From: a virus
Lineage: Duplodnaviria > Caudoviricetes
Length of the DNA stretch: 64,000 bases
IMG/VR virus record: IMGVR_UViG_2834368228_000004
Coordinates: 32,001-96,000 of that record
Direction: 5' to 3' (one strand)
The notes beneath the pieces were generated by a model that saw only the letters and a list, made by a program, of their open reading frames with translations, was not told the DNA's origin and made no database searches. Positions 8,323 through 62,984 of the stretch are shown piece by piece; the stretch's first letter is position 1, and each line of letters opens with the position of its first letter. Made by a program: the position numbers and the translations under genes.

Positions 8323-8335
8323 AGTAAAGAAATTA

Positions 8336-11442: not shown

Positions 11443-11454
11443 TTTATAACCTCC

Positions 11455-12204: not shown

Positions 12205-12227
12205 GTTTTTTCTCTCCCTTTTTTAAA

Positions 12228-14897
12228 TTAGATTCTTCGCTTTACTTGCTTCATTAAATGAGGATGATACTGTGATAGAACATTGTAAAGCTCATTGAAT
12301 GTGTCTTTAATGTCCCATTGTGCTTCGTCAGACGTTCTAAGATTAATTAAGTGGTAAGCTTCCCATAAGTCAAAATTAGCCACTACACGTCTCTTATGTG
12401 CGTTTAAAATAAGATAGTCCGCTTCTTGATCGAAACCTTTTTCTACAAAGCTTACATACTGTGCAAATACTTTTTCATGTAAGTTCACTAAGAGATGTTC
12501 TAAACCAGCTGCTTTAATTCTTGGTGGAATTACTAATCCATTTTGCATAGAAGGCCCAGCAAACATAAAATCTGTTTTGCGGTTATGTCGCAAGAGCTGA
12601 TGCCAATTTGCTTCTGATACTTTTAGCTCAACCTGATAATTAACAGACTTAAAAGCTTCTGGTGCTGTATCAAAATGTTTAATATCAAAGAGAAGCTGTT
12701 CAATAATTTGATTTCTTTTTGCATAATCTAATTCTCTGGCACGATTAAGTGCAACTGAATAAGGAATATTTGATTGCTGTACAAAATATAAAGCTAAAAT
12801 ATTTAAAACCTCATCAAGTTCAAGGCCGACAGTAAGAACTTTAACATCACGTTGTAAACCTTGATCATCTTGAGTGGAATTAAAATTAGATTCAATAACA
12901 GATTGATGTTTTTTCTGGTATGGAGAAGCATCTGCGTATTTTAGTAAGACTGGTAATACTTTTGTTATCTCTTCTTTCAACGCTTTACGCATATCTTTAA
13001 CTTCAGTGTATTTGCTTGTCTCTAATTGTGCTAAGCCATCTCTCCAAGCACGACCATTAGCAGTCATACCTAATTGAGTGTACATGGCTAAAGGTAATGC
13101 ATAACGAGCATCTTCAAATGCAAGCTTTTTTAATGCATTATAGTCAGAAGACAGTTCTTTATCGATTTTAGTTAATTCCTTAACATTTTTATCATTCTCT
13201 TTTTGTTTCTTCTTAAGCTGTTTAAATTCTATAGAATCGTGATATTCAGATTTCAAATCCTTATAGACTTCATCAATTAACTTCTCAAATACATCAAAAC
13301 ATTCATTCATAGACTGTTCAAATTCTTTATGTTCTTTGCTATTCTTTTTGAATGGATTATGCCAATCACCACGTTTAGGCTTTTGATATCGCTGACTGTA
13401 TTCTGTAATACTGTAAAATGTATTACTAAGTTCAAGATCTGCACTTGCTAGTCGAGATACCTTTTCAATACCGACATGTGCTACAGCATGTTCTGCAACG
13501 CTGTTTCCGCTAATATGAACTCTTCCATTTCGACGCACAATTAATGTGTGATACTTTGGCAACTCTGCACAATAAACTAAACCACTGTAATCCTCCCAGT
13601 CATCAAAAATGTCATATTGAACTTTATTAACCATCGATTCAAGTAGCTTTTTTGTAATAAATAATCTCCATCCATCCTTATGGTTTTCAGATTGTGCAGG
13701 TCGCTCATAACTAAGATATGAACTCCAGCCTAATAGTAAAACTAAATGTTGCACTTGATCTGCTAATGTTTTACTAGAAGTATCATATACCATTGATCCA
13801 TTTCTATGATCTTTACTTCCATCTGAATTCATTAAGCCATCAAATAAATAATGAAGAATTGTGGAATCAAGTTCTAGAAGATTATCTGGGATTTGTTTTT
13901 CTCTATTTTCGTCATAACATTTTGATAAGATATCACCAATATCATTATTGTTAGATGTGATATAGAACTTATAATTTTTATTTGCTGAAATTGATAAGCC
14001 TAACTGTTCACAGAGAGAATATAGATAATCAATTTTACGTTGTTTTTTAATATGAAACTGAACTGAATGTTTTGTTCGGGTATCAATGTAACCATCTCCA
14101 ATAAAAAAGCCAAAAAGTTGTAGTAATGGCTCAATTGGGTATCCATATAATGTATCGGAAACGTCCCCATTCCAATTTAATCCACCTAATCTAACCTTAT
14201 AACATTTGTCTTTTAAATCTTCAGCATTAATTAACTGATATTTACGAGTTTCGAATTCTTTAATCTTATGACGAGGCCATGCAAAAACCTTATGATTTGG
14301 TGTTACCATCATATCTATACGGTTTCGATCAACCTTATACATTGGTCCAGTATAAGGTTCTTCAATGAGTTTAACTGGCTTTAAATATTCAACTTCTAAA
14401 GAGTCAGGATTTACAGATGCTAATTTATCATCATCATTAACACTAAACCAGTTTTTAAATCCTTTCTCCGTAAGAACTTCAGTTTTCTCATCGTAGCAAC
14501 TATGTCCGTACCCGACAGTCCACTTTTCATGAAAATCTTTTGCTTTCTTATCAAGACTAGTAAAAGTGTCTTGCTTCGGAACTTCTATATCAAATTCTTT
14601 TAAAGCTATTTGTAAATGTTCCTTAAACGATTTAGGTGAACGGGATACCCATGCGAATAAAGTTGCAACAAACTCTTCTGGTAAGTTTTTAATGGCATAG
14701 ATGTTCCCTTCTGGATTGCTGACAAAAGGAGAGATATCGATTGTTTTTTCTGTTTGTTTATTCTCTGATGATTCAGTTTTTGTAGGTCTTTTCCTTGTTG
14801 TGTTTCTCTTTTCTACTGTAGAAGTCTTATTGGAATCATTGATTTCTTCCTTTACTTCGACTTTTGTATTCTTTTCTTCTTGTTTTGTATTTGACAT
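12228..14897 (-). CDS. thyX: FAD-dependent thymidylate synthase with tandem ThyX domains, intein-containing
   Basis: GYGHS|SVAEH, SQRY, EDARYALP, QLLRH, LRTSDEAQWDI; start revised to ATG 14897 after AGGAGG. Confidence 0.88.
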   Translation of the reverse strand: MSNTKQEEKNTKVEVKEEINDSNKTSTVEKRNTTRKRPTKTESSENKQTEKTIDISPFVSNPEGNIYAIKNLPEEFVATLFAWVSRSPKSFKEHLQIALKEFDIEVPKQDTFTSLDKKAKDFHEKWTVGYGHSCYDEKTEVLTEKGFKNWFSVNDDDKLASVNPDSLEVEYLKPVKLIEEPYTGPMYKVDRNRIDMMVTPNHKVFAWPRHKIKEFETRKYQLINAEDLKDKCYKVRLGGLNWNGDVSDTLYGYPIEPLLQLFGFFIGDGYIDTRTKHSVQFHIKKQRKIDYLYSLCEQLGLSISANKNYKFYITSNNNDIGDILSKCYDENREKQIPDNLLELDSTILHYLFDGLMNSDGSKDHRNGSMVYDTSSKTLADQVQHLVLLLGWSSYLSYERPAQSENHKDGWRLFITKKLLESMVNKVQYDIFDDWEDYSGLVYCAELPKYHTLIVRRNGRVHISGNSVAEHAVAHVGIEKVSRLASADLELSNTFYSITEYSQRYQKPKRGDWHNPFKKNSKEHKEFEQSMNECFDVFEKLIDEVYKDLKSEYHDSIEFKQLKKKQKENDKNVKELTKIDKELSSDYNALKKLAFEDARYALPLAMYTQLGMTANGRAWRDGLAQLETSKYTEVKDMRKALKEEITKVLPVLLKYADASPYQKKHQSVIESNFNSTQDDQGLQRDVKVLTVGLELDEVLNILALYFVQQSNIPYSVALNRARELDYAKRNQIIEQLLFDIKHFDTAPEAFKSVNYQVELKVSEANWHQLLRHNRKTDFMFAGPSMQNGLVIPPRIKAAGLEHLLVNLHEKVFAQYVSFVEKGFDQEADYLILNAHKRRVVANFDLWEAYHLINLRTSDEAQWDIKDTFNELYNVLSQYHPHLMKQVKRRI
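13503..14498 (-). mobile_element. intein with LAGLIDADG endonuclease (332 aa) in thyX
   Basis: Begins CYDEKTEVLT, block B VTPNH, LFGFFIGDG and LFDGLMNSDG, ends HISGN before Ser. Confidence 0.92.
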
Positions 14898-15024
14898 TAT
14901 TATTCCTCCTATGTAATGCATTAATGCACAGCATAGAGCTGATTGGTTGAAACTACCTTGTCAGGGGTGTTTCACCATCCTTTTTATATTTTTTATTCAG
15001 CCCTATGCTGTGCATTAATTAGGT

Positions 15025-22557: not shown

Positions 22558-22614
22558 ATTATATTCTCCTCTCAGACAATTGTTTTTAAATTTTTTAAAT
22601 CATAAAATAAGCCG

Positions 22615-23226
22615 TTAGGCGTTAAGAGAAAATTTTGTATCTCTTAATCTTTTTAAACGTTTCTCAATAGAGTTAACTGAACGATTTAATATATTAGCAA
22701 TATCTTTCTGTTTCATATTTTGGTTATAATACATATTCCATAGCTTTGTATCTTTAGCTGGAGTCCAATACTTCCCTTTATTTGAAGGTAATTGCACATC
22801 TATGGATATTTGCTCATCTAACCATTCTGGTTCTGGATTTAAAACTCTTCGCTCAATTCGTGACCAAATATAAAGATCTCTATTATTGCTGGCCCAATTC
22901 CAAAACCTTTTTACATCAATATAGTAAGGTTGGTTTTTTGAATTATTTCCTTTGAAGTAGAGTTTTTCACCTGGAAGACCTTTTTCATGTATATGCCTTA
23001 TTATTGTACTAGTATCCACATGAAGTGTTTTAGCTAATTCATTAGCAGAAAACATTCCAGTTTCTATGTGCTTTGTTGCACCCAATCTCTCCAATTGTCT
23101 TTGGACAGATCCTGGAGTTCGATTAAGACGTTTTGCTATAGCCTTAATTGTCTTGACTCTCCCTACTAGGAATAAGAGTTCTTCGTTTGCTTCTTCTGTC
23201 CAAGGATTTATATATTGATTAGACAA
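22615..23226 (-). CDS. multi-HTH DNA-binding protein
   Basis: WTEE...IAKRLNRTPGSV and WTPAKD...IANILNRSVNSI repeats. Confidence 0.75.
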   Translation of the reverse strand: MSNQYINPWTEEANEELLFLVGRVKTIKAIAKRLNRTPGSVQRQLERLGATKHIETGMFSANELAKTLHVDTSTIIRHIHEKGLPGEKLYFKGNNSKNQPYYIDVKRFWNWASNNRDLYIWSRIERRVLNPEPEWLDEQISIDVQLPSNKGKYWTPAKDTKLWNMYYNQNMKQKDIANILNRSVNSIEKRLKRLRDTKFSLNA

Positions 23227-28346: not shown

Positions 28347-28409
28347 AATTATTTCTCCTCTCAGTTTTTGAGTTTTTATTTTTTCTACTGAACTAGCCGA
28401 CAGGCGTTA

Positions 28410-40870: not shown

Positions 40871-40957
40871 TATTGGTTCCTCCTTCTTTCCTCTAACTGC
40901 CGATAGGCAAAAATTATCTACTTATATAGCCTATAAGCTATGTAAAATGATATATTT

Positions 40958-44879: not shown

Positions 44880-47800
44880 TATAAACAACCTCCTTGATAT
44901 CGTTAATCTTACAGATTTCTTTAATGATACGTGTTTGTTTATCTTCATCCATATCATAATCCAAATCATAAGTATCAAGAGTATCAAAATCTTCTTGCTC
45001 ATTATCACTGTGGAGATAGACTTGAAAATACCCTTCATCACTAGACTCCTGAAGTGATACGTGATAAATATCCGTAACTTCTTCTAACATTTCCTCAATC
45101 TTTTCTCTTACATCTGCTTGATGTCCTGATAGAATCATTTCACCCTTTACATATAGCTCATAATCTTTTTCGCCCCACTTATAGTAGTCTGGCTTATTTT
45201 GCTTACCTGATTTATCTAGCAATTCCATAGTAATATAGGGGACATCTTCATCATTGTGCACTGTTCTATAAAACGTTTTAAACTTTTCTTCTATATTTTT
45301 ATCTTCTAAAGCCTTGTGTTTCACATGTTTAAGGAAGTCGTAATACATAAACTCACTGACAGACACTTCCTTTCCTTCAAGTAAGCTTTCTATATATCCA
45401 TCAAATCGTTCTTGGCTCACAATAAAACCCCCAATTATTATTTACTTCACAGCATTAGCCGACAGGCGGTTTAGATTTAATCATTTCCTTTCTGAGTTTC
45501 AAAACCTTTGATCTGCCACCATCCGTAGGATTCCTTGTCTGCTTCCTCATCATAATGTGCCAGTTGCCCAGAGCTATAACCTTTATTAATCATATGCTTG
45601 ATGTAGTCTTCATCAATTTCAGATAGATTCTTGTTCTCATCCATTTCAAACCAGTATTCGATTTCATGAAATAGAAGCATAGCCTTCATAATTGTACTCT
45701 CCTTTACTATTGATACTGTTCAATAGTTCATTTCTTATGTGCTCCTTTTCAATTGCTAACATAAATGGATATCACCAAGAACTTTTAGTTTATTGTAATC
45801 ACGTTTATTACTTTTTGCTTTTATAATATATATATATATATAATGGCAACTACTATTATAATCTTTATCTTCAACCTTTTTTATGATTTCAGTCTGAATA
45901 CTTTTTGCATTATATTCCAAGTAGTCAATTACTTCGTTATCATCTTCTCCCCAGGTTTTAATCCTAAAGGATTTATTAAATAGCATGATTTTCTCCTTTT
46001 TTAGAAGACAACACTAAGGGAAGGGGATTACCTGAAGCGTCAGTCTTAGATAAGACTTCAATCATTGCATGTTCATAAAATAAAGTTTTATCTATGTTGT
46101 TATGCTTTGAGATAACATCATATGAATACTGACGGATTTCATCGTCCGAGAGCTCAGTCATATTAGAATGATAGAGAGTATACGTAAGAGTTAACTCGTC
46201 TTCTAAGATAAAGCTAACTTTATATTCTTGTTCAGACAATACTGGAGCGGCCAGTTTAGTTTCTATAGAACGCAATTCATTAGTAAATCCATACATGACG
46301 GCTAACTGCTGAATCTCTTGACTACCAATAAAAGAAGCCAATAATTTATTGTTGATAGATTTATTCATTTTCATTCTCCTTTTCTCGATAAAATTATAGA
46401 TTTTAAATTAAAATGTTATTTTCAATAATCAAAATACCTAAAAAACCAGATACAGTTGAGACTACTTTCATACTCCCTTTCTCTACTATTATATGCCCCT
46501 TATTTGCACCAAATAGAAAATCGTTAGGTGATTCATACTGTAGCTCTAAGTTATCAATATGAAACTGGTTACTTAATGCTCTCTTTATTTTATCTAACAT
46601 TCTCTTCTCTCTCCTTTTTGGATAAAATTATAGTTTTAACCTGTTTTTAAATAGGATTGCAAATGATTCTTTGAAGCTCTCTGCTAAGTTTTCATCAAAG
46701 AATCGAACACCTTCAATAAAATCATAAACTTGATTTTCAAATGTTCTTGCTTTGTCTTGATTATTTGGTTTAATAGCCCATTCCCAGTAACCAACATATT
46801 GTTTAAACTCTTTTTCGATCTCTTGATTTGATAAAATTCGCTCTCTTTCATAATCCAATACTTTTGCATCTGTTTCTGAATTTTTAACTCCAAATGCTTT
46901 ACGGATGATGCTAATTTGTATCATTACACGTTGACTTTGTTCTCTGGTGTACAATGGTTGGGTATCTAATTCAATAACTTTTTTCATTAATTCTTTATTA
47001 TTCATTTGTTATTCCTCCAAACAATTAATGTACGTGCCTTTCTAGATATAATTTCATAGCATCAAAAAACAATTCAGTAAGAATATATCTCTGATCTACA
47101 TCTGTTGGTTCAATAATATTATTATCTATAAAAAACTTAAGTGAATTAACATATGCCTTTTCTTCACTTTCAGGAGAAATAATAGCAACTTTAGAACGTT
47201 CATCTTCAATCTTAACTTCTTCAATCAATTGCCATGCAAGTGTAGCGATAGTAATAGCTTCATGTTTTTTATTCATATCGATAGTCAATGTAATTACTCC
47301 TTTATATTTTATTCGAACTATGCACTAACTTTTTTTAAAACATTCTTCACGATATAATTGCCCATCTATCAATAACCAACCTTCTTTATACTGTTGTGCC
47401 TTGTACATTTCGCCTAGTATAAAGTCGTAATTGTTATGCCATTTAACATAAATAACATCCATCGTCTAACACCTCACTGGTTCGGATTTTATTCGGACTA
47501 TGCAGTAACTTTTAATTGTTCGTTTGCTAATTTAATGCCTAATAGATAAGCCACGAAACACATTGGCAACTTCTTTCCGAATTCGGATAAGATTGAAAAA
47601 TCTTCGCCATCGAAATAATAAAATGAGTTGTCCATATAATAATTAAAAAGCTCTCTTTCCAATTCTTTTGGTGTACATACGGATTCTATAGTGCCTTTCA
47701 GAAATTTATATATTTCTTTAGCTTCTTTAAGCGACTTATCTTCTGCATCATAAGTATTTTCTTCATACCAATCTTTCAAATCGTTTTTGGCTTTCCGTTC

Positions 47801-50642
47801 ATCAAAATACCAGCGTTCTCTTGAATGGCATGATAGTTTTCCTAGCAAATATCCTAGATCTATATTGTTAAAACTTTGCGGAGTAGCTATCCATGTCAAA
47901 TTGAAAATTGCATCACCAATATCTCCTGAAACATATAATCTTGAACCGCAGAAAATATATCTTACTGAATAAATAGATGTTCCTGGCTCTCTCCAATCTA
48001 AGATAGTTATACCGTCATACTCAGTTATTTTTGCTTCATGATTATTGAACCATTTATCCTTTATTTCCTGTTCCATTTCTTCAATTTCTCTCATTTTTAC
48101 CACCCTTTCAATGCTTTGTATTTTCTATCAAATTCGAATTAGTTATTCTCATAAAACATTATAAGCTTCGATGGTTCTTGTTCCACTGGTTGAAGTTTCA
48201 CTTTCGTATAATCAACCTTATATAATTCATCAGTGTCTACTTCAAATCGACCCATCTTTTTTACAACAAAAGCCAAGAAGTGTTGGGCCTGAGCTTTCTG
48301 CCTTTCTAATTCTCTTATTTGTTTCTCAGTTTCCTTTAACCTGTCGATAACATCTTGAAACATAACAATCCTCCTATACAAATAAATTAAGTTCCTCTAT
48401 CTTTTCAAACAGATTAGTATATAAAGTAGAGTTCTTTGGAATCTTAGTAAACTCTGTTCTGTTATCATCAAGCTGTTTCATCTTAAAGAAGTCTGATGAT
48501 AACAGAAAACCAAACAATTCCTCATCGTTATGTCCAAGAATGGAAGACACATCATGTAGCTCTTCAAAGTTATGTAATAAGCAATACAAGTAATCACGAT
48601 AATATAGATCATTTTGAAGAACAAACTTATCTGTCTTAAGAAGACTATCCTCTAAACTTTCAAGGACAGATTTATCTATCCAATGAATAGGGTCATGCAA
48701 GTAACTTAGATCTCCATCTTCATCAAAAGGAATTATATCTAAAACATCGTCTTTAGCATTGCTCATATCAAACACTCCTCCAAATAGTTAATCATACGTA
48801 AATATATTTCCGGTCACGCAATAGCTCTTCAGTAATTTCACCAGAAGGAATAGCTTTCTTAGCTAACTCTAATAACTCAGAGTCCTTACCTTGAATGACA
48901 ATACGAACTCCTTTTTTAGAATTATATACATTTACTTGAACGGTATCGATTGTATCAAATCCTTCAAGAATACATTGAACACCATATGAAATAGGCTTTC
49001 TTTCACAAACAACAGCATTAATGCCAGAAGCCCAACTACCAACAAATCCATTAACTAATGCATTAAACAATTCGTCTTTATTCAATAGAAAAACCTCCAA
49101 TATAATATATCTACCATGAAATCCACATAGCAACTACGTCACCATTTTCAAGTCCTAATATTTCAGACATTGCCTTGAAATACATTTCAATTTCATCTAA
49201 CTCAACATTTTCTCGATGATCCCAATCTATATGCATTCGTATGTACATATCATTATGAACACGATACCTTGAGAGGATGTACTTCTTCCAGAAATCATCC
49301 TTACTCATATACCCATTAGCCTCCATATGATACATAACTTTGAATAAATCAAAGACACGATTATCTTTAATCTCTAAGACATCAGTATTACATTTAGGGC
49401 AAAACAACTCATAGTGCATCTCGAGAACATAACCACAATTCTTACATTCTCCGTAGTGCATAGTAAAAACCTTCTTTCTCTAATTATGGAATATTCAGAC
49501 ACTTACACTCCTCCTAAAAGAAAAAGATATACCTCTTACTAATAGGGGAGAGACATACATACTTAACCTATAAAGAAACAATACTCACAACAACCATGTG
49601 CTTGAAAGAAATCTGACTCTGTATTATCACAAGAGCAATCATCATTCTTCTTTGATTCATCTACAATATCATTAGACTGCATTATGCAACCTCCTCACAT
49701 AAGTCATCTACATAATGCCATATCTCACCAACAAATTGGTCAACTAAATCTCCATCAGCTTCAACAAATACACTCATTGAAGTCTTATTAGAGTAACCAA
49801 ACTCTTTTACAAGTTTACGTAAGAAATCTTCTAGGCTACTATGATCATGAAAACTAATCATTCTATTGCTAACAACTAAAGTATACTCATGCATAAATTA
49901 ACCTCCAATATAATATAATGCTTACAATCATTTATTATTAAGTGAATAAGAAGACATTAACTCCTCTTGTTTACAAGCACAACCACCAAAGGGGTCTTCC
50001 AGTGTACGGCATTTCAAACAGCAAGAACTATCCTGCATTTCATCAATAATATAATCAGATTGCATCAACATAAACAACACTCCTATTATAATAATACTTC
50101 TACACAATTAGCCGACAGGCAATTATTCAATACTATACAATTCATTAAAATAAACATACCATTCATCTAGCTTAGATAATATGCGTTTATTAATTAACGT
50201 ATAACGCTTATGAGAACTTTCAAGAAGCAGGTCTTCATAGTAATAGATTACCTCATGATAGTTATATAAATCTTCGATGTTATTATCCATTACCATACAC
50301 TCCTGCTGTTTAAAGAATATTCAGACATCTATACAAGCCACCCCAATTTTAAAAGAGTGGTTAATAATACATATCAGAGAGGGGATAGTATGTAAGTATA
50401 ATATAAAGACTATGTAAGAAATATTAATCCCCTCTAACTACTAGAAACTATATAGCAAATGTTATCTCATCTTTACCAACAGATTCATCTACTACATCAA
50501 TAGAATGAAAATACCATTCGTCTATCTTTCTTTCTAATCGACTAAGCTTTCTTTGATCCCCTTGTGGTTTCAACTTGTTTTGAATAAGCTCTTCATAATA
50601 CCCTAACCTATAGTGGAACTTGGCACATTCTCTCTCTGTCAT
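44872..50642 (-). other. array of about 16 small leftward hypothetical genes (44872..45420, 45477..45689, 45756..45986, 45976..46374, 46403..46600, 46628..47005, 47025..47288, 47498..48103, 48139..48381, 48374..48775, 48792..49133, 49111..49461, 49682..49894, 50448..50642 and shorter ones)
   Basis: Tightly packed ORFs, most with a clear RBS; typical phage early or accessory region. Confidence 0.7.
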
Positions 50643-51937
50643 GCTAATACCTTCTCCTTTGTTATTCTATCTCTTTTATATATTTATATCTTCGTAACTG
50701 CCGATAGGCATCCCAAATTAAGTTCGATTAACTTACTATGTAATACACTACATCATCATAACACACAATACATTAGATTATAGTAAATATCTATACGAAC
50801 ACATACGAACAAATAGTGAACAATTTGTGACAGTTAAAGTATAATGTAGCGAAACCTTAGGAATTCCCCGTCTTAATACTATGTGAGAGGGTTTTACAAC
50901 AAACATCGAAAACTAACAGTGAAAACCTCATACTTACAGTGTAGGCATAATGAAAAAAGATAGCCTCATCAAAAAGATAGCAAACTACTAGAGAAAATGT
51001 AATACTCTTCAAGAATAGTCCTCCAAGTATAGAAAGCTACGACACCATCATCGAGTTAACCGGTACCTCCCAGCCATAGCGTGAGGATGATGTCGTCCGT
51101 GGCCCCCGTATGCCCTTTTGGAAACAGCATAAATCTAAAACCTTCGAGTCAATGTATGTACGTTTGACAAGGGAGTAAGAAAATTGATACCACCAAGCTT
51201 TCATATAGTATTTCCCTCGTGTTCCGCTTCCATATATAACCGCCATACATATAAGTGACATCACCATAAAATACATACTTCTTACCACAATAGCATGACA
51301 GTGCTCATACTTCTTAACACTAATAAAATACGCCAATACTATATAGTATGCTGTCAACATATCACCTATAGATGACACACCTTACATAGTACACTGACAG
51401 TATGGTCGCCTGTAGTAAACTTGGGGAATGTAGGGTGCCGGCAGTGTTGCCGATAATAATAAACCCACCACATGTAGGAGCTACCACACCCACTGGGAGG
51501 TGAATGAGATTGTCTGACGGGAGTTGCAATGTTACCGAAGGTTAAATGTCACGTTGGCATCAGGGAAGCTGAGAGAGCCTTCTATTTAATCCTGAGCGGT
51601 TTAGCGATAAGAAGGATGGTAGCATGCGGTGTGTGTGGGTGTTGAGTAGAACACGTACAATGTGTGAGTGTTCGGATGGTGGCGTACGGATAATGCGAGA
51701 CTGATATATACTTTTGCTCGGTCAAAGTATGCTATGTGTGTGGTGAAAGGCGAACAATGATAGGGAGCGGATGGTGTGGATAGCCTTCTCCGAAGGTAGA
51801 GAGGGAGGGAGAGAGGGTAGTATGTTGAGGGTTATCATATATGAGGATGTAGCATGCACACCCGAAGGGTGGGAGAACCCCTATCCGAAGGAGTTCTCCA
51901 TTGTCATACTTGGGTGATTAAGCTATAATTACAGTTA

Positions 51938-54900
51938 TTAAGCGCCTAGCTTGATTAGCTTCCCTACTTCTAGGTTAACAGTGCGAGTACCTTTGCCGAG
52001 GTTACAAGCATCTACTGATAACATGAACTTATCATGACCTAGTAGTGGGGAAATGTTGTTTCTTGAGTTATATGCAAAACCTACTTCAGTCTTATTAATG
52101 AATAGCTTATACTTGTCACCTACACCTTGAATAAAGATGCTTTGAGTAGATAAGCCTTCTAATACTGTGTCTAATGTAAACTTCTCTTGAATGTCATCTG
52201 GAATACATACAGCAACAGTGAAGTTATTATCAATCACTTGATTAGATACAATTTGATCTTGCTTCGGTTTATTCTCCATGTAAGAAAGAGTTTGAATGAA
52301 TGCTTCACGTGTAATCGTCCAAGGGAATGAAAGACCTGCATCTTGTTTACGATCTACATATGTTGCATAGTATGCTGCATATCCGATATCTTTAGCTGGA
52401 TACTGGCTCATTAGTTCTGCTACTCTGTCACGAGCTTGTTCAGCAATCGTACCGATGTGAGTTGAAACCATCTCATCGATTTCATTCATTTTAAGTTCAC
52501 GTTCTCCTTCTTCAAGGTTGCCACTCATAATCTTATTCTTATATTCTTCTGCTCCTCTGTATGTTTGACGAACAGCGCCACCGTAACCTGCTTTGATTTG
52601 TTTTACTTGATTCAATAGCATGTTAAAGTAGTTTGGATCTAAGTTGAATGAACTGTTCATCTTAGTAAGCAATGAGTAGCTGTTAGCATCTTGATACATA
52701 ACTTCTATTTTGTTAGTAAGCTCTTTATCTTCAAAGTCTTGTACCATTTCCATTAGTCTAGATAATACGGATCCTACATCATGTCCGTCTTTACCTTTAC
52801 GGCTTGCCAACCAGTTAGGCTTATTCCATACTCTTCTGCCTAATCCTTTATTGAAGTAAGATAGCTCTTCAGGTGGGTTAACCATGAAGTCTAATGTTTC
52901 TTTCATCACTTCTTGATAAGCACCACCGTGTTTAGCTGCATCAATTTCCCATCCTTGTACAAGGCGAAGAATGTTGATCCAGTTTTCATACTTGTTAATA
53001 CGTTGTAGCATATTATCTTTCTCTTGAGGTGATGCATCTTTAATCATATAGTCATAGCCGATACCACGAACACCATCAGCTAAGATACTAGCGATGTTTG
53101 TTGCTAATCCGATTTTGTTAGGCTTCAACGTTCTGATAACATAGTCGATACCTAGTTTATGAATCTCTTCATAAAGAGCGGTTGTTTTCTGTCTATCTGT
53201 GAAAGTAACACGATAGTTGCTTTGGCTAACAACCATGTCAACTGGTAAGCGATACACACCAGTCATTGGCTTAGAGTATGGAACACCATCTCCAAGAAAT
53301 TCTACTTCTCCATTCACATCTGTGAAAGAGATATCCATTAATGGTGGGAATACTTTACGTTGTAATGCTTCTACAACTGCTGGCTCTGTAACAGTTAATG
53401 CTGTATCACCATCGTTGTCTGCTCCACCCATTGCGAATGTAGCAAAGTCATGAACACTCATAACTAGCAAGTTACGGAATCCACCTTTACGAGAAGCTTG
53501 ATTATACACTTCAATACCACGATTACGTAGTACTTGCCACTCACCTTTAGCAATCATTGGATTACGACCAGCCGCTACATACAAAGGTGATTTATCTTTG
53601 TGTGCAGATGGGATGTAAGCTTCATTTGGTTGAATGTGATAGTCACCACGATTAGTAATCATCAGTTGACCTTCATCATTACGCACTTCATATTTTGTAC
53701 CAGCTTCTAGTACAGCATATGGATCTTGAATCATGTAGCGGTAGTGTCCTTCTACTGGAATGTTACCAGTTTTCCACTCTTGAATCTTTTCTTTCAACAC
53801 ATCTAATGCATAACGTTTCATTTGTACATCATCGTAGGACCATTCGAACATATCCAAGAAAGTAGTAAACGTGGATACACGAGATTGATCTAACAGATAG
53901 TGTTCTACTTCTGCATCAAGTAAATCGGAATCAATGACTTTATCTAATCCGACATACTTCTTCATAAGAGATGGATCATGCAATGCATTACCGATTTCAT
54001 CTAAATGTGGTTTCAATACATTCCACAAGTCATTAACATTGAGTGAAGAAGCTTGAATGAATTGATATGGCATATCAGTGTAAGACTTAACTTTACTCAT
54101 TGGCTTGTTGAACATAGCAATACGTAATTGTGGTACAAAGTTAGGGTTAGATTTGAATAGTAACTCAAAGCTACCTTTTACTGCTGACTTAAGTGCAACT
54201 ACATGTGCATCATAATAGCTGCGTAAGTTAGGAACAAAGATCATTAAGCCTTTTACAAATGGAGTAATACGAATTTGCCATGCATCATTGAACTGGCCAA
54301 ACTCCGCTCCAAGTGTATGATACATTTCTTCATCACAGAATAAAGCTCCATCAGCTGCAGTTAGTGTAATTGGATGCTCACTTGCATCGAATACTCTGAA
54401 CTCTTGACGTTCCTTATCCCAAGCACGGTACGTACCAGTGTTGATTTCAACAAAGCGGTCTTCTACCAATGCAATCGTATGAGTTCCACCAGTTAGATAT
54501 TGATCTCCAGTCTCAATATTAGTGACTACTTCGTTACCAAAGCGGACTGTCTTAGATGCAATACTGTTCGTACCAGCTAGTCCTGGACGAGTCATCATTT
54601 TGTCTACATCGATTACATAGTTGCCATCACGATCTACTTTTGCATAAGCTAAGAAATCATGTCCAAGCACACGATATGCATCGATAGGGGACATTACATT
54701 TGTATCAATGAATACTGCTTGCAATAGTCTTGCTTGTGAAGCTGAGCGTAATAAGAAGAATGCATGACTTTCATCACCATGCTCATTCATGTAATAGAAA
54801 CCTTCTTTCATAACTTTCGTACGAAGCTCTACTAATTCATGATCTTCTTCAGTGTAATCCATTTCATCCTCTGGAAGCTCAATGTACAAGTCTGCAAAGA

Positions 54901-55474
54901 AGATGTGACGCATTGGCAGCATAACACGTTGTTTAATCAATTGACCATCCTTCGTGAATTCAATTACTTCAGAAGCGGATGCAAAGCTTTCACTTAGGAA
55001 TGACTCACTGATCTCTTTGTAAGAATCAACATTCACTTCAGTATAATCAATTGTAGAATATACTTTATCTTCACGTAGCTCCATGCTATTTATCTTAGCA
55101 ATAGGAACAAGAACACCTTTACGTGTTGGTGCATATACACGATTAGCTAGTTTGTGTGAACTAACAAACTCTTTGAAGTAGCGAAACTGATTAGATGGTA
55201 CATCAGCAATAGATGGATCTTTAAGAATATCAAGTAGTACATTACCTTTTGACATAGCATTTAATACACGAGCAAAGTTCTTAGAGTTACGTGACTTGAA
55301 TCCTTCAGCAACAGAAAGAGCTGCTAAGATATCTTGTACAGTAAATAGGTATCCATTTTCTTGTAGTAGTGAGCGATTTTCGATAGTTGTGTTCATAGTT
55401 AAAACATCTCCTTTAGTTTGGTTGTTTAATTTAGTTGATAAAGATTTCGCAGTTTGATTTTTCATAGTAATCAT
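51938..55474 (-). CDS. YonO-like single-subunit RNA polymerase (eukaryotic RdRP / double-psi beta-barrel fold)
   Basis: Ordered motifs RSASQAR, KMMTRPGLAGT, ADG, AWQIR...KG, GRNP, GGADNDGD (catalytic DxDGD), IG...N, IDAAKHG. Confidence 0.85.
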   Translation of the reverse strand: MITMKNQTAKSLSTKLNNQTKGDVLTMNTTIENRSLLQENGYLFTVQDILAALSVAEGFKSRNSKNFARVLNAMSKGNVLLDILKDPSIADVPSNQFRYFKEFVSSHKLANRVYAPTRKGVLVPIAKINSMELREDKVYSTIDYTEVNVDSYKEISESFLSESFASASEVIEFTKDGQLIKQRVMLPMRHIFFADLYIELPEDEMDYTEEDHELVELRTKVMKEGFYYMNEHGDESHAFFLLRSASQARLLQAVFIDTNVMSPIDAYRVLGHDFLAYAKVDRDGNYVIDVDKMMTRPGLAGTNSIASKTVRFGNEVVTNIETGDQYLTGGTHTIALVEDRFVEINTGTYRAWDKERQEFRVFDASEHPITLTAADGALFCDEEMYHTLGAEFGQFNDAWQIRITPFVKGLMIFVPNLRSYYDAHVVALKSAVKGSFELLFKSNPNFVPQLRIAMFNKPMSKVKSYTDMPYQFIQASSLNVNDLWNVLKPHLDEIGNALHDPSLMKKYVGLDKVIDSDLLDAEVEHYLLDQSRVSTFTTFLDMFEWSYDDVQMKRYALDVLKEKIQEWKTGNIPVEGHYRYMIQDPYAVLEAGTKYEVRNDEGQLMITNRGDYHIQPNEAYIPSAHKDKSPLYVAAGRNPMIAKGEWQVLRNRGIEVYNQASRKGGFRNLLVMSVHDFATFAMGGADNDGDTALTVTEPAVVEALQRKVFPPLMDISFTDVNGEVEFLGDGVPYSKPMTGVYRLPVDMVVSQSNYRVTFTDRQKTTALYEEIHKLGIDYVIRTLKPNKIGLATNIASILADGVRGIGYDYMIKDASPQEKDNMLQRINKYENWINILRLVQGWEIDAAKHGGAYQEVMKETLDFMVNPPEELSYFNKGLGRRVWNKPNWLASRKGKDGHDVGSVLSRLMEMVQDFEDKELTNKIEVMYQDANSYSLLTKMNSSFNLDPNYFNMLLNQVKQIKAGYGGAVRQTYRGAEEYKNKIMSGNLEEGERELKMNEIDEMVSTHIGTIAEQARDRVAELMSQYPAKDIGYAAYYATYVDRKQDAGLSFPWTITREAFIQTLSYMENKPKQDQIVSNQVIDNNFTVAVCIPDDIQEKFTLDTVLEGLSTQSIFIQGVGDKYKLFINKTEVGFAYNSRNNISPLLGHDKFMLSVDACNLGKGTRTVNLEVGKLIKLGA

Positions 55475-55492: not shown

Positions 55493-55930
55493 TTAGTTGT
55501 ATAGGCCTAAGATATCGGCTACAATATCTCTTGTGAGATTCTCTTCGATCAGGAAGCAAATCTCTGAACGGTCTACTAAACCGTAGACATCAAAGTGGAA
55601 GACCAACACAGGTCTTGGAAACTTATGGTGAGCGTTGCCATATCGTCTCAAAACATGTATGGTAACGCCCTCCAACATATACTTCTTAACATACTTCACA
55701 TAATTCTTGGAGTCAGACAAGGTGACGTCAACAGGGACATCACCAATGAAACAGTCTGTTCCATAATAAAAATCTTCTTCCTCTGTAGAAGGACGATACT
55801 CTTCATAGAAGAGGTCCTCAAATAGATCCAATACGTATGCTTCTACATATTCACCATGACTCATATTGCTACGATAAGACGTACTCATTTCTGCTTCTCC
55901 TCTCTTAGAACTGGATAAGTGATTAAGCAT
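55493..55930 (-). CDS. hypothetical protein, possible PD-(D/E)XK fold
   Basis: E...GTDCFIGDVPVDVT. Confidence 0.6.
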   Translation of the reverse strand: MLNHLSSSKRGEAEMSTSYRSNMSHGEYVEAYVLDLFEDLFYEEYRPSTEEEDFYYGTDCFIGDVPVDVTLSDSKNYVKYVKKYMLEGVTIHVLRRYGNAHHKFPRPVLVFHFDVYGLVDRSEICFLIEENLTRDIVADILGLYN

Positions 55931-56088
55931 TCGATTACATTACTTCTAACCGAATAAACCCCATATCTTGCACGATGTTTCTTGTCATATCCGATAAAGA
56001 TTGAATATAGATAACCAAAGTCATCGTCATAACCTAAATACTCGCCATTTGTTACTAGTCTTCTAAATGAAACTCTCATAGTTAACAC
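55885..56088 (-). CDS. hypothetical protein
   Basis: Small ORF with AGGAG RBS. Confidence 0.55.
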   Translation of the reverse strand: MLTMRVSFRRLVTNGEYLGYDDDFGYLYSIFIGYDKKHRARYGVYSVRSNVIECLITYPVLREEKQK

Positions 56089-56319
56089 TCCTTTTGTTTG
56101 TTTTTAAGTTGATTAAAGTAATACATTTCAAACAGGCATAAGCCTCTCATAGACAGCGAGCGGTCACTCTAAGAGAACCATCTATGGCATCTGTTTAACC
56201 CAATACAGTGGGATGTTCACATGCTTCAACGTGCTGAGTGGTCTAAGACCCATGCCTATCTTCGACCACTACATAGATAGGGTGAGGGGATGTTCCTGAA
56301 GCAACGACAACATAGCTAG

Positions 56320-56805
56320 TTAAGCTATCAATGAATAAGCGAATACATCAAACACTTCACTAAGCCCTACAAAGCCTTCATGCATAACTGTTGATATGAA
56401 GTAGATAGGTGCTATAGCAAGCAAGATACCTGTTGATGATAAGAGACCAACACTTAAATGTTTGAATGCTGTTGCAACCATATCTCTACCAGTAGCTAGA
56501 TGCTTGTATCTGTTGTAGTAGGAGATCATCTTTACTCCTGCATAGAATGTTGCACTAACAGGTATAAACAAGGCTCCTTGTGTGACAAGGCCTGCTGCAA
56601 ATGAAGTTGTTGTCACTAGAGCAGCTGATTTCCAATGCTTAGCCGACAGTTCCTTCACGTTCTTGTAAGCTGAGCCTAGCCCTCGCTTTACAGAAGTGAC
56701 AGCTTTAGATGCCTTAAACTTACTCCAACCTTTCTTCACACTCTCTAAAACATCAGCAAATACATTACCTTTCATGTCTTCTTTCGCTTGTACTGTGATA
56801 ATCAT
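56320..56805 (-). CDS. membrane protein
   Basis: Several hydrophobic segments; AAAGGA RBS. Confidence 0.7.
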   Translation of the reverse strand: MIITVQAKEDMKGNVFADVLESVKKGWSKFKASKAVTSVKRGLGSAYKNVKELSAKHWKSAALVTTTSFAAGLVTQGALFIPVSATFYAGVKMISYYNRYKHLATGRDMVATAFKHLSVGLLSSTGILLAIAPIYFISTVMHEGFVGLSEVFDVFAYSLIA

Positions 56806-56853
56806 GGTAAATCCTTTCTATATGCTCGGTTTTATGTCATGAGCTGGACTAGT

Positions 56854-56922
56854 TTGACTTGTCTTATCAATGCAGGGATAGTCAATCACCTACAGACACC
56901 CCTCCTCTAGGGTGTTTCGACA
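56854..56922 (-). ncRNA. type II hammerhead ribozyme, U3-A8 core variant, with pseudoknot
   Basis: TGTC-GAAA-CACCC..GGGTG-TC^TGTAGG..CCTGCA-TTGATAA-GACA; loop TTGACT pairs with downstream AGTCAA. Confidence 0.85.
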
Positions 56923-57099
56923 TTAAAGGGATATGATTGTGTATCCTTCAGCATCTACTCCAAGATTTACTTCTGCTTTCTTAACCGCATTAATAATCAA
57001 GTGCTGATTGTATCCTCGTTTCATTAAGTCTCCGAAACGAATAACCTTTCCTTGTCCTTTGATTTGCTTGAATAGAGTTACCAGTGTGTTTGTTTGCAT
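56923..57099 (-). CDS. 58-aa hypothetical protein, first gene of the leftward arm; not in the ORF track
   Basis: AAAGGA RBS; MQTNTLVTLFKQIKGQGKVIRFGDLMKRGY. Confidence 0.6.
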   Translation of the reverse strand: MQTNTLVTLFKQIKGQGKVIRFGDLMKRGYNQHLIINAVKKAEVNLGVDAEGYTIISL

Positions 57100-57299
57100 T
57101 CTTCATCATCCTTTTCAATTAGTAGTAGGGGGTGGGGGCGACAAACGCCTATTAGAAAACCCTATTAAAAAAGGTGCTACCCTACGCAATTTTTTTATAA
57201 AAAATGTCCCATATAGGGATTTCCCCATGTTTGTGGGATGACAATTGAGAAAGTTTGTTATACACTGTTTGTAATGCATTACATAAAAGGAGGTAAGTT

Positions 57300-57674: not shown

Positions 57675-58031
57675 ATGAGAATAACAAATGAGGAAATTGC
57701 AAATCTATGTCACAGCATAAACAAAGCATACTGTGAAAGTATTGGTGATTACTCCCAACCTTCGTGGGAAGATGCCCCTGGATGGCAGAAGAAAAGCGCT
57801 ATTGCAGGTGTAGAGTTCCACATGAATAATGAAGTAACTCCAGAGGATTCTCATGAAAGCTGGAGTAAACAGAAAATATTAGATGGATGGAAATTTGGAG
57901 AAGTAAAGGATCCTATTAAAAAAGAGCATCCTTGTTTAGTTCCTTACAGTGAGCTGCCACCAGAACAAAGAGTGAAAGACTACTTGTTTAAAGATGTCGT
58001 AGATACCGTGAAAGCATTAAGGGAAAATTAA
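57675..58031 (+). CDS. RyR-domain phage protein
   Basis: SHESW...GWKFGEVKD..KKEHPCLVPYSELPPEQRVKD. Confidence 0.85.
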   Translation: MRITNEEIANLCHSINKAYCESIGDYSQPSWEDAPGWQKKSAIAGVEFHMNNEVTPEDSHESWSKQKILDGWKFGEVKDPIKKEHPCLVPYSELPPEQRVKDYLFKDVVDTVKALREN

Positions 58032-60258: not shown

Positions 60259-60414
60259 TAATAAATTTAAAAAAGTTTACAAAAGCACTTGTAATGCATT
60301 ACATTTTGATGTAATATGTATTTAAGGTATGATTGATGAGTTTTCAGTTTTCCAACTCCTTTCGAATTTGTGATTATCATTAGACATGTATCCCCCATAC
60401 ATGTCTAAAAAAAT

Positions 60415-60486
60415 TGGGATATAGCTCAGCGGTAGAGCAATCGGCTGTTAACCGATAGGTCGTAGGTTCGAAACCTACTATCCCAG
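60415..60486 (+). tRNA. tRNA-Asn(GTT), CCA not encoded
   Basis: Full cloverleaf; ATCGG-CTGTTAA-CCGAT. Confidence 0.93.
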
Positions 60487-60492
60487 TAATAT

Positions 60493-60572
60493 GTTCCCTA
60501 CTAGATGGTAGTTGACTCCATAGCGAGTGTACAGTAACTATGGACGAGGAGGTTCGATTCCAACAGGGAGCG
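60493..60572 (+). ncRNA. aberrant tRNA-like RNA
   Basis: Acceptor GTTCCCT/AGGGAGC, GGTTCGATTCC T loop, anticodon-position stem CCATAG/CTATGG with a 14-nt loop. Confidence 0.6.
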
Positions 60573-60578
60573 GCATAA

Positions 60579-60653
60579 TGCGGTGTAGCTCAGTTTGTGT
60601 AGAGCGCTTGGTTTGGGTCCAAGAGGTCGCAGGTTCAAGTCCTGTCACTGCAA
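60579..60653 (+). tRNA. tRNA-Pro(TGG), CCA not encoded
   Basis: Cloverleaf; CTTGG-TTTGGGT-CCAAG. Confidence 0.9.
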
Positions 60654-60671
60654 TCGATAATATTAAAAGAA

Positions 60672-61480
60672 ATATCGGCTTGGCGATGATAGCTATGCGT
60701 GAGTATAGTAAAGGTGGTTTGACAAACTGCCGCTACATATGTAGTCAATCCAAGCACTACGACTTTCCAGGTCTTCATGTAACCAATGGAGATAGCTTTT
60801 GAAATCAAAGGAGAGTTCCTTGCGAGGGCAACGCTGTAGCGAGGTGGCATTAGGTGGCACTGATGCGCTCCACGCCAATTTGATTAAAAAGTGAGAAAGA
60901 ATCGGAAGGCTATCAGTTTGAGGTTTGACAACCAAAGGCGTTAGTCAATGTCTAAAGAGACCTGTCAACTACATATAAGATTGGCACAGTACCTTTAGGG
61001 ATCGTTCGAGTAACTAGTCGGTGAAAGAACAGGGTGGTGTGTGGTATTTTGTTCTCCAAAAGGGAATGAAGCCACTGGAACAGCACATCATCAGTTGAAA
61101 GGATAAATAATAAATTATAGTTTCTTATTTGGGAATAAGAGTCCAATACAACATATTACATTACAGTGAAAGCCTGTTCCACGAAATAACGAAAGCGACT
61201 TAATCCTTCACTCCATGAGAATGAAGGGGCTGATGAGTCTCGCAAGGCTCAAAAGCTTTTGTTCCGATTTGCAAGGTTCTCTTAGCGGAGATTTGTAGCG
61301 TGGCAACGTTGACTGAATTTGAAGAGCAGAGTAGTTATTTCGATGTGTCATATTATGCTAGACACATTAAACTAAAGCAGTCGTGGTCATTACTTGAGCG
61401 CTTATAGGTTCAAGTGGACACGTGAGGAATACATAATCTCACTAAAGATGACTAAGAAAGAGTTTAGTCTCAGCTCTTTC
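60672..61480 (+). ncRNA. large ornate ncRNA of about 800 nt, GOLLD-like
   Basis: No credible ORF, GC above background, many hairpins, directly follows tRNAs in a phage-like element. Confidence 0.6.
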
Positions 61481-61806: not shown

Positions 61807-61826
61807 AATGAAGGGTGGAAGGAAAA

Positions 61827-62984
61827 ATGGCAAACGAAAAGAAGCAGATGCATCTAGTGGCAGTCGATGTAGGTTTTGGGGGATTAAAGTACATGTCAAA
61901 CAGCAAGCCAGAGCCACAGGTTATACCAAGTGGAGTTGTTACTGGTGTACCAGCAAGTAGACCATTACTATCATCAAGTGATATTAATATTAATGAGTTA
62001 GTAGTCCAAACAGAAGAAGGCACATACTTTGTTGGAGAGAATGCGTTAGGTATGCCAGTAGAAGAGAATGTTAGTGTGCGTACAGAAAAGCGTAATCGTG
62101 CTCATGATGTAAAAAGCCGAGTTTTATTCCACACTGGAATTGGTTTAAGCTTACCTGATATAGATGGAAAATATGAAGTTACAATTGTGACTGGTCTTCC
62201 AAACAGTGACTACGACAAAAGCATTCATGATGATTTACGAGCTTTCTTAGAAAAAGATTTTACAGTAGAGTTTTACTTGGATAGAGAAAATAGTATAAAA
62301 AAAGAGGTAAAAGTAGCTAAAGTAATTATCTTGCGTCAGCCAGAGGGAACAGTTACGTATAATCAATTTAGATTTGATCCTGAATCGTTCATTGTGCCGT
62401 CTAACAGTCGTGCTGATTATCTTGGAGTAATTGATTTCGGACATGTTTCTACTGACTATGCGCTATTTAGAAATGGAGTAGTAATAGAAGACCCAACCAA
62501 AAACAAGTCAACTATCGGTGTAACAGAAGTGTATAAACGTCTTCGTCAAGCTGTAGAATTGAAGTTCAGTGACATGGGCTATATGTTCCACCCTTCAGAT
62601 CAAGATCTTGATTATGCGATTCAAACAAACCATATCCGTTATCGCAATCAAGACTTTGATATATCAGATGAAATTGAAATGGTTGTTAGGGATCGTGCAA
62701 GACCTATTACTGATTCAATTACTACTGCCTGGGGCAATGAAGCGAACCGTCTTCAATTGATTATTGCGACTGGTGGAGGAGCTCATGTTTATGCTCAAGA
62801 AGTAAGAAGGAATTTTGAGTCAGAGAATATCCAAGGATTCATTATTATGGAAAATTCTAGGTTCACAAATCTCTTAGGATTCTACATGTATGGAGCATTG
62901 GAGCTATCAGATACTTATGGTACTGAAAAAGTAATGGAGCTATATGTGAATCCGGTTAAGGAGTTGCATGAGCATGTCGCATAG
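61827..62984 (+). CDS. ParM/StbA-family actin-like partition ATPase
   Basis: VAVDVGFGGLK, VTGLP, QPEG, IDFGHVSTD, TGGGA. Confidence 0.9.
   Translation: MANEKKQMHLVAVDVGFGGLKYMSNSKPEPQVIPSGVVTGVPASRPLLSSSDININELVVQTEEGTYFVGENALGMPVEENVSVRTEKRNRAHDVKSRVLFHTGIGLSLPDIDGKYEVTIVTGLPNSDYDKSIHDDLRAFLEKDFTVEFYLDRENSIKKEVKVAKVIILRQPEGTVTYNQFRFDPESFIVPSNSRADYLGVIDFGHVSTDYALFRNGVVIEDPTKNKSTIGVTEVYKRLRQAVELKFSDMGYMFHPSDQDLDYAIQTNHIRYRNQDFDISDEIEMVVRDRARPITDSITTAWGNEANRLQLIIATGGGAHVYAQEVRRNFESENIQGFIIMENSRFTNLLGFYMYGALELSDTYGTEKVMELYVNPVKELHEHVA

Follow-up and report, generated by a model that had tools for sequence, protein, structure and literature searches.

The window analyzed here is a 64,000-nucleotide stretch of a Caudoviricetes virus (IMG/VR record IMGVR_UViG_2834368228_000004, positions 32,001 to 96,000), and the subject of this work is a minus-strand gene at positions 51938 to 55474 that encodes a large, single-chain putative RNA polymerase. 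Two gene arms diverge at ≈57.25 kb, and the polymerase gene is the fifth open reading frame (ORF) of the leftward arm, with four small ORFs ahead of it; its placement near the start of that arm by the initial annotation, which was made from the DNA letters alone, is thus confirmed. ORF scanning and translation of the window reveal a single unbroken frame of 1178 residues, with an AGGAG ribosome-binding site (RBS) 2 nt ahead of the first ATG and 11 nt ahead of the second. Because this spacing suits the second ATG and the public gene call begins with MKNQ, the true start is probably position 55465, which gives a protein of 1175 residues.

To place the protein among known polymerases, we combined profile searches with an alignment of its homologues. 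The initially annotated catalytic GADNDGD sequence is borne out by translation of the uninterrupted frame, which places GGADNDGD at residues 683 to 690 (positions 53405 to 53428, minus strand), and by a match above threshold to PF05183, the Pfam family of RNA-dependent RNA polymerases (RdRPs; 32.1 bits against a gathering cutoff of 23.8, E 6.9e-8, residues 524–803). A word-index search returned 28 homologous clusters of 879 to 1281 residues, the named ones from Virgibacillus, Paenibacillus, and Alicyclobacillus and mostly on contigs of 187 to 229 kb; 19 of the 28 listed carry a precomputed PF05183 match. Over these 28 homologues, D375, G376, R402, K408, G409, G684-A685-D686, and D688-G689-D690 are invariant, as are N786, T792, W842-E-I-D845, K848, and G850-G851 further along the chain, and Q400 is almost so. 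At the sequence level, this conservation and the Pfam match are far above chance, and the protein is in all likelihood an active two-barrel RNA polymerase. When searched against 1.8 billion representatives, the family profile retrieves 508 clusters at E ≤ 1e-3; almost none of the 20 such clusters looked up carries a name. No PHROGs family was matched by the protein, and a megablast of window positions 48 to 60 kb against cultured phages gave no match. The window DNA itself is matched in 20 DNA sequencing runs from soil and animal-gut metagenomes (six studies).

An AlphaFold model computed from the homologue alignment (mean predicted local distance difference test [pLDDT] 85.7, predicted template modeling score 0.76) allows the chain to be divided into the following regions, all on the minus strand.

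55124 to 55378, minus strand: N-terminal helical region (residues 33–117), beyond the QDE-1/RDR2 alignment and conserved in full-length relatives.
54065 to 54382, minus strand: first double-psi barrel region (residues ≈365–470), with D375, G376, Q400, R402, K408, and G409.
53390 to 53767, minus strand: second double-psi barrel region (residues ≈570–695), from alignment and model.
53405 to 53428, minus strand: metal-binding loop GGADNDGD (residues 683–690), from translation and conservation.
52922 to 53119, minus strand: long helices after the barrel (residues 786–851), with N786, T792, and WEIDxAKHGG; candidate bridge helix.
52265 to 52921, minus strand: helical neck/head-like region (residues 852–1070), within the QDE-1/RDR2 alignment, with a Y..TY...SFPW motif as in RDR2.
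51941 to 52252, minus strand: C-terminal α/β domain (residues 1075–1178), found neither in QDE-1/RDR2 nor in shorter YonO-like relatives.

The best solved structural matches to the predicted fold are the eukaryotic RdRPs of RNA interference (RNAi). Foldseek against the PDB ranks Neurospora QDE-1 first (E 3e-17) and the best chains of plant RDR2 next (E ≈1e-16), both at probability 1.00, followed by Thermus phage RNA polymerases (8F72 and 8F5M) and the crAss-like virion polymerase (6VR4). VIA-align gives Z 21.6 for maize RDR2 and 19.0 to 19.2 for QDE-1 (root-mean-square deviation 4.2–4.4 Å over 590–694 residues), 11.8 to 12.6 for Thermus phage gp64-type polymerases, 9.7 for crAss gp66, and ≈8 for β′/Rpb1 chains, the latter over residues 560 to 912, which hold the metal-binding barrel and the long helices that follow. 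The alignment with QDE-1 and RDR2 covers model residues 118 to 1070 (≈950 residues), and the model reproduces their slab-catalytic-neck-head architecture; both barrels, the long helices past the metal loop, and a neck/head-like region are all present in the prediction. QDE-1 (PDB 2J7N and 7Y7Q-T) and RDR2 (7W82, 7ROZ, and 7EU1) further share with the window protein the Asp triad in the same loop, RDR2 the C-terminal Y..TY...SFPW motif, and QDE-1 the Asp, Gln, and Arg residues of the first barrel at matching spacing. By that spacing, rather than by a residue-level alignment, D375, Q400, and R402 would be the counterparts of QDE-1 D709, Q736, and R738, which bind metal and the product strand (PMC9508822). 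Identity to the eukaryotic enzymes is 12 to 15%, and in sequence searches of solved-structure chains the single protein found nothing and the family profile nothing significant (E 1.2 at best). QDE-1 and RDR2 are eukaryotic enzymes that use RNA as template, alongside Dicer/Argonaute or Pol IV; QDE-1 additionally accepts single-stranded DNA and is a dimer with a regulatory C-tail, whereas the window protein has extra N- and C-terminal domains and is encoded in a DNA phage.

The C-terminal domain folds confidently when modeled alone (pLDDT 91.8), as an α/β barrel. Foldseek returned no match with E <0.1 for this domain, and its best structural likenesses are weak (lp_0118, Z 6.5; HIRAN, Z 4.5; SmpB, Z 4.0); a HIRAN entry also appears among the matches in a viral structure library. 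We take the predicted likeness to small nucleic acid–binding barrels as a lead rather than as an assignment. The ESM Atlas yielded nothing usable for this domain and, for residues 30 to 245, only low-score RdRP clusters.

By sequence, the family lies much nearer to the phage polymerase YonO (profile E ≈1e-17) than to the solved eukaryotic RdRPs (E 1.2). A tblastn search with the window protein against 50,697 cultured phage records gave a sole match, the SPβ-type YonO of phage BUCT082, which is also recovered by phmmer against the window protein (E 2.4e-11) and by hhalign against the family profile (probability 94.8%); the profile likewise matches the YonO-type cluster representatives P0157 and P0168 (E 9e-18 and 2e-16, respectively). 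The hhalign match spans only window residues 237 to 706, leaving the N- and C-terminal extensions unmatched. The two proteins are thus homologous single-chain, two-barrel phage polymerases, but the BUCT082 enzyme is shorter (924 residues), has the metal motif DFDYD where the window has DNDGD, and gives no Pfam RdRP match at E up to 0.01. The YonO/RNAi-RdRP fold initially proposed for this gene is upheld by both comparisons suggested at the time, of a predicted structure with QDE-1 and of profiles with YonO. YonO of SPβ is a processive, DNA-dependent polymerase with a single start site, from which it transcribes the operon for late structural and lysis genes, its promoter being still to be determined (Forrest et al. 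2017, PMC5467207). According to Iyer et al. 2021, phages 0305phi8-36 and c-st have YonO-like enzymes.

The first of these phages provides a close precedent. The best matches in the viral structure library are uncultured-phage proteins named “RNA dependent RNA polymerase” and the 1218-residue A7KVB1 (BFVD, E 3.7e-19), which from its length and accession series we take to be gp99 of the Bacillus thuringiensis jumbo phage 0305phi8-36 (ORF099, ABS83659.1; annotated “hypothetical DNA-directed RNA polymerase”); the family profile matches gp99 directly in that genome (E 4e-12 and 3e-10). Like the window gene, gp99 encodes a single chain and is the first large gene of a leftward nonstructural arm, followed by a phage-specific motif proposed as a middle promoter. 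Identity is ≈15%, beyond the reach of tblastn, and the motifs differ: that of 0305phi8-36 is GTTCGCAC between variable paired flanks, that of the window GCCTRWCGGC. Hardies, Thomas, and Serwer assigned orf99 to Pfam05183, argued that it is DNA-directed and, citing the absence of sigma factors, proposed that its middle promoter is the 21-bp motif, to which their text applies none of the terms hairpin, stem, inverted repeat, or palindrome (Hardies et al. 2007, PMC2147016). The window gene is therefore a well-supported addition to an already known polymerase branch, and the role considered below is essentially the 2007 proposal. New here are the full-length structural match to RNAi polymerases, a clade of cultured phage-plasmid carriers, and lineage-specific covarying hairpins.

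Full-length relatives are encoded by phages or plasmids of 190 to 260 kb from Bacillus, Paenibacillus, and Virgibacillus. PLSDB lists nine “plasmids” of 200 to 260 kb with homologues annotated as hypothetical proteins (eight of the nine full-length), from B. licheniformis, B. paralicheniformis, B. halotolerans, B. thuringiensis, Paenibacillus, and Cytobacillus, and IMG/VR rates two relatives as 100% complete viruses, one with terminal repeats. Because “plasmids” carry homologues and relatives are rated as complete viruses, we place the window element in a clade of jumbo phage-plasmids whose hosts have been cultured and regard it as a Bacillus-type phage-plasmid of ≈190 kb; a Virgibacillus relative also has a terminase gene in the flank of its polymerase region. 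The polymerase gene is single-copy in each genome and syntenic at the head of the nonstructural arm in the window, Virgibacillus, two relatives designated G1 and G2, B. licheniformis pSCDB14, and 0305phi8-36. A tblastn search of cultured phages with the G1 polymerase found nothing. G2, a 228,841-bp Paenibacillus rhizovicinus “plasmid,” shows identical context at positions 12840 and 224610, 211.8 kb apart, which suggests that the record has ≈17 kb of terminal redundancy. Enterococcus elements of 205 to 216 kb encode a shorter, 963-residue relative followed by a 493-residue ORF (L037, positions 10001–14422 of a 216-kb contig); a split-off C-terminal part of the polymerase was considered for this ORF and rejected, as it has no similarity to the missing region.

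Around the polymerase gene, the head of the leftward arm is organized as follows.

57270 to 57283, no strand assigned: perfect palindrome TGTAATGCATTACA at the point of arm divergence, a candidate operator heading the polymerase operon.
55493 to 57099, minus strand: four small ORFs and structured spacers before the polymerase gene, in the same orientation, none with a hairpin site.

The order is a 58-residue ORF, a hammerhead-like spacer, a 161-residue membrane protein, a structured spacer, two small ORFs, and the polymerase gene; further left are genes for an SNF2 helicase, RecA, an AAA ATPase, an intein-bearing ThyX, a UvrD helicase, and a DnaG-type primase, and the gene order of the arm is kept in Virgibacillus and other relatives. 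The ribozyme attributed to this operon by the initial annotation does not hold up at that strength: between the first two ORFs (56853–56922, minus strand), there is a Hammerhead_II match below threshold (24.4 bits against 37), with UUGAUAA where the core requires CUGAUGA. A canonical core, CTGATGAG plus CGAAAC, is found in the Virgibacillus relative L033 (≈8440–8500). The single-copy sequence GTCCAGCTCATGACnnnAAACCGAGC (56824–56849, minus strand), unchanged in the four relatives L033 to L036, stands right before the RBS of the membrane-protein gene and may be an RNA leader element. A sigma-70-type promoter scan of positions 49.5 to 58.5 kb gave 30 sites where 34 are expected; no convincing promoter of the polymerase operon was among them, and no leftward promoter was seen when the divergent region was read by eye. 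Early synthesis of the polymerase is suggested by the position of its gene near the start of the arm.

The 1.2 kb right after the polymerase gene (50710–51937) holds no called gene, is C/A-rich, and contains several CTTCGG-type hairpins. It is poorly conserved in relatives, apart from one 92-nt piece at 75%, and an Rfam scan of it found nothing. In L033 (13878), G2 (103251), and L004 (13721), no ORF follows the hairpin site that comes first downstream of the polymerase gene, and it is possible from this arrangement that the first transcript after the gene is noncoding. A gene-free stretch also occurs in BUCT082, where 1.7 kb of hairpin-rich DNA (L001, 6950–8660) separates yonK from the HU gene that follows the yonO homologue and includes a DUF3800-VIII RNA match (8335–8400); this is the same relative position as an unannotated noncoding RNA of SPβ, upstream of yonK at the YonO start site (PMC5467207).

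Given the fold, an RNA-templated main activity, in which the enzyme would copy phage or host RNAs, such as the noncoding RNAs of the element, into double-stranded or antisense RNA for regulation or counterdefense, has to be weighed. The protein belongs to the Pfam RdRP family, its closest solved structures are RNAi polymerases, the active site of QDE-1 serves RNA and DNA templates alike (PMC9508822), and the window has GOLLD RNA and tRNAs besides the hammerhead-like element and the gene-free stretch. We nevertheless judge this very improbable, since YonO, the nearest studied phage homologue, is a processive DNA-dependent enzyme (PMC5467207) and is much nearer in sequence than the eukaryotic enzymes are, none of the ORFs scanned resembled a Dicer or Argonaute partner, and a DNA phage without a sigma factor requires a transcriptase for phage-specific signals. 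A DNA-dependent phage transcriptase is the likely identity of the protein.

Candidate signals for such an enzyme are found downstream of the gene as copies of a mini-hairpin, GCCTRWCGGC.

50700 to 50709, minus strand: mini-hairpin GCCTATCGGC, the first site downstream of the polymerase gene.
50111 to 50120, minus strand: mini-hairpin GCCTGTCGGC, then TAATTGTGTAGAAG.
45458 to 45467, minus strand: mini-hairpin GCCTGTCGGC.
40899 to 40908, minus strand: mini-hairpin GCCTATCGGC, in a unit with the SNF2 helicase gene.
28396 to 28405, minus strand: mini-hairpin GCCTGTCGGC, in a unit with recA.
22611 to 22620, minus strand: mini-hairpin GCCTAACGGC, in a unit with the AAA ATPase, ThyX, and UvrD helicase genes.
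8313 to 8322, minus strand: mini-hairpin GCCTATCGGC, in a unit with the DnaG-type primase gene.

All seven sites lie on the gene strand, and every one is downstream of the polymerase gene; 1.6 are expected over both strands, and a count of seven was not attained in any of 100 shuffles. Each lies 28 to 57 nt ahead of a start codon with an RBS and is followed by ≈7 bases and then by GTAGAA or GTGAAG. These candidate promoters precede replication genes, not structural genes, of the window.

Hairpins with the same layout, and with sequences that change from lineage to lineage, are found in the relatives.

Virgibacillus L033, L034, and L035 (polymerase 61–69% identical): GCCTRTCGGC downstream of the gene, with 4, 4, and 1 sites, respectively.
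Paenibacillus element G2, 50% GC (polymerase 36%): GCCTRTCGGC plus nnCATTCnTnnTGA, 7 sites on the gene strand, directly downstream.
G1 (polymerase 33%): SCCTCCGGS plus nnATTTGGTGAAAA, 15 sites on the gene strand and 0 on the other, with ≈0.4 expected from base composition.
B. licheniformis pSCDB14 (polymerase WP_080623693.1, 28%): CCCCATCCGGGG plus nnTTT..GTGA, at least 3 sites.
0305phi8-36 (polymerase ≈15%): GTTCGCAC plus TGTnTTGTA, 16 sites on the gene strand.

A further class, GGGCTACGCCC, lies downstream of the polymerase gene in an Enterococcus relative and is tentative. Each of the classes before it combines a hairpin with a T-rich stretch and a GTA or GTG at similar spacing, then an RBS. 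In G1, the outer pair is C..G in 9 sites and G..C in 6, without mismatches (15 of 15 paired), and in 0305phi8-36, the flanks comprise a constant C-G pair and three positions paired in 14 to 16 of the 16 sites, with three to four pair types each. Paired positions thus covary in two lineages, perfectly for the outer pair of G1 and clearly in 0305phi8-36, which argues for a structured signal. Sigma70_r2 was not detected in G1, G2, or 0305phi8-36 by a search whose positive control registered in 10 bacteria; a search of the relatives for the T7-like RNA polymerase family gave nothing, nor did any control register in that search.

The shared layout, the covarying hairpins of distant relatives, and the lack of a detected sigma factor agree with a role in which the polymerase reads these signals for the replication arm, and we consider that role moderately probable. 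The enzyme would, with similar confidence, be a nonvirion, DNA-dependent RNA polymerase for the middle genes, namely those of replication, recombination, and nucleotide metabolism. Transcription of middle genes from mini-hairpin sites had been put forward in the initial annotation; strand-specific sites found only downstream of the gene, their recurring layout, and the sigma factor search speak for it, short of proof. We infer that DNA is the template, that the hairpins are promoters with this enzyme as their reader, and likewise the start position and timing in what follows. The polymerase would not travel in the virion but would be synthesized in the cell after infection or induction. A different enzyme would begin by transcribing the short operon from 57.1 to 51.9 kb at the head of the leftward arm; this could be host RNA polymerase, controlled by the TGTAATGCATTACA operator, or a giant tail-slot RNA polymerase. 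The new polymerase would then initiate at bipartite signals, each consisting of a GC mini-hairpin with a T/C-rich loop (GCC-TRWC-GGC), a spacer of ≈7 mostly T-rich bases, and GTAGAA or GTGAAG, with the start point probably at this purine-rich box, 15 to 45 nt ahead of the start codon.

The sites are small hairpins of a single-strand type within a replication arm, and RNA polymerases prime DNA replication in some phages. The enzyme might then make replication primers rather than mRNA at hairpins that serve as single-strand initiation signals. Each site, however, stands at a fixed short distance from an RBS and start codon, on the coding strand only, and the arm has its own DnaG-type primase gene, so that we regard this as highly improbable.

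The relatives appear to encode a second polymerase. In G1 (68191–75105; L025:8191–15105) and G2 (48186–55109, minus strand; L012:8186–15109), ORFs of 2304 and 2307 residues, respectively, lie among the giant structural genes and have an N-terminal RNase H/DnaQ-like part, RYPTFH...ADSDGD near residue 1870 at a conserved position, and a weak hhalign profile alignment to the metal-binding barrel. From these features, each giant ORF is a putative second two-barrel RNA polymerase, and a scheme with two polymerases, as in Thermus phage P23-45, seems likely. P23-45 has a nonvirion RNA polymerase, gp64, which is encoded among the first-expressed genes and has its own promoter class, and a virion RNA polymerase, gp96, fused to the tape measure protein (Chaban et al. 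2024, PMC10770324). A similar pairing of a nonvirion two-barrel enzyme with a giant tail-slot polymerase is suggested by the ORFs of G1 and G2; gp64 differs in its size (≈590 residues, half that of the window protein), in its Thermus host, and in a GC-rich promoter that is not described as a hairpin (PMC10770324).

The hairpins could instead be read as promoters by the giant tail-slot (virion) polymerase, or act at the RNA level as processing sites, 5′ stabilizers, or terminators, with the RdRP-like enzyme transcribing another set of genes, for example, the late structural ones, as YonO does. Besides the second polymerase of G1 and G2, the density of the hairpins fits this explanation, as they are most frequent among the small, early-looking genes right past the polymerase in both the window and 0305phi8-36, and the hammerhead-like element of the upstream operon suggests that RNA processing may matter in this phage. 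Yet the polymerase gene and its four preceding ORFs are without a hairpin in every lineage with good sites, which would be odd if an injected enzyme read first; the structural operons of G1 carry TATAAT boxes and TGTAATGCATTACA and no new motif; and the sites of the window and G1 lack a T-run long enough for termination. The giant-polymerase profile also found nothing in 0305phi8-36, which has hairpins and gp99, although this is a weak test, the profile being built from two sequences and without a positive control there. On balance, we consider this explanation unlikely, though the most serious of those weighed here.

Several observations count against hairpin reading by the RdRP-like polymerase. 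YonO, the only characterized homologue, transcribes late genes, not replication genes (PMC5467207), and the closest solved structure is that of QDE-1, an enzyme able to copy RNA as well as DNA (PMC9508822). The hairpins of the window, taken as single DNA strands on their own, are weak (−1.8 to −3.3 kcal/mol, 3–4 bp), and the stem is invariant in the window lineage, so that the support for pairing comes from the relatives. In 0305phi8-36, the hairpin and the T-run that follows it also resemble an intrinsic terminator, and gp99 is itself preceded by two degenerate copies. The giant two-barrel polymerase could be the reader, and no RNA run is among the sequencing runs listed with window DNA.

The palindrome TGTAATGCATTACA helps to delimit the genes that the polymerase would serve. 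Three copies occur in the window (3155–3168, 57270–57283, and 60290–60303) against 0.03 expected, and the sequence is conserved in G1 (≈11 intergenic copies), G2, L004, L033, and L034, usually just past a TATAAT box. In G1 and G2, it follows TATAAT boxes ahead of operons on both arms, structural ones included. We read TGTAATGCATTACA as the candidate operator of a clade-wide regulator acting on host-type promoters, an arrangement that would suit a phage-plasmid. Because TATAAT boxes and TGTAATGCATTACA precede the structural operons of G1, this distribution suggests that structural genes are not the target of the polymerase.

The family bears on the question of how a single-chain, two-barrel RNA polymerase finds promoters without sigma or TFIIB-like factors. 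That a polymerase of RNAi architecture recognizes mini-hairpins extruded as single-stranded DNA, as sigma-free promoters, is a tentative answer that we put at rather less than an even chance; judging from the models, recognition might be the task of the family-specific C-terminal barrel, with its faint likeness to HIRAN and SmpB. The virion RNA polymerase of coliphage N4, an injected enzyme with a T7-like fold, reads early hairpin promoters without a sigma factor, each promoter being a small DNA hairpin with conserved loop bases at a fixed distance upstream of the start site. That fold is unrelated to the two-barrel enzyme of the window, and the window stems are shorter; membership of the window system in the N4 group is ruled out by the two-barrel fold, and any likeness would be one of mechanism only. 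If extruded hairpins are indeed recognized, this would be convergence with the N4 virion polymerase, polymerase and hairpin loop would have codiverged across the Bacillota phage-plasmid clade, and the YonO promoter problem would become solvable. The family offers a test set for this question, with a confident model, candidate promoters in at least four lineages, loops that differ with the polymerase, and covariation; cultured carriers are at hand in B. licheniformis, B. paralicheniformis, B. halotolerans, B. thuringiensis, Paenibacillus, and phage 0305phi8-36. The occurrence of the complete slab-catalytic-neck-head plan of RNAi polymerases in DNA phages, as predicted here, also bears on the proposed phage origin of eukaryotic RdRPs.

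Other elements of the window lie on both arms. On the rightward arm (60414–61476, plus strand), tRNA-Asn, tRNA-Pro, and a full-length GOLLD RNA (205.9 bits) are found with a TGTAATGCATTACA copy ahead of them. The leftward-arm gene for the thymidylate synthase ThyX (12228–14921, minus strand; 897 residues) is split by a LAGLIDADG intein-type insertion. An RyR-domain protein (57675–58031, plus strand) is the product of the second rightward-arm gene, and a ParM/Alp-type actin is encoded at 61815 to 62984 (plus strand); the actin is conserved beside the terminase side in relatives, which fits plasmid-like maintenance.

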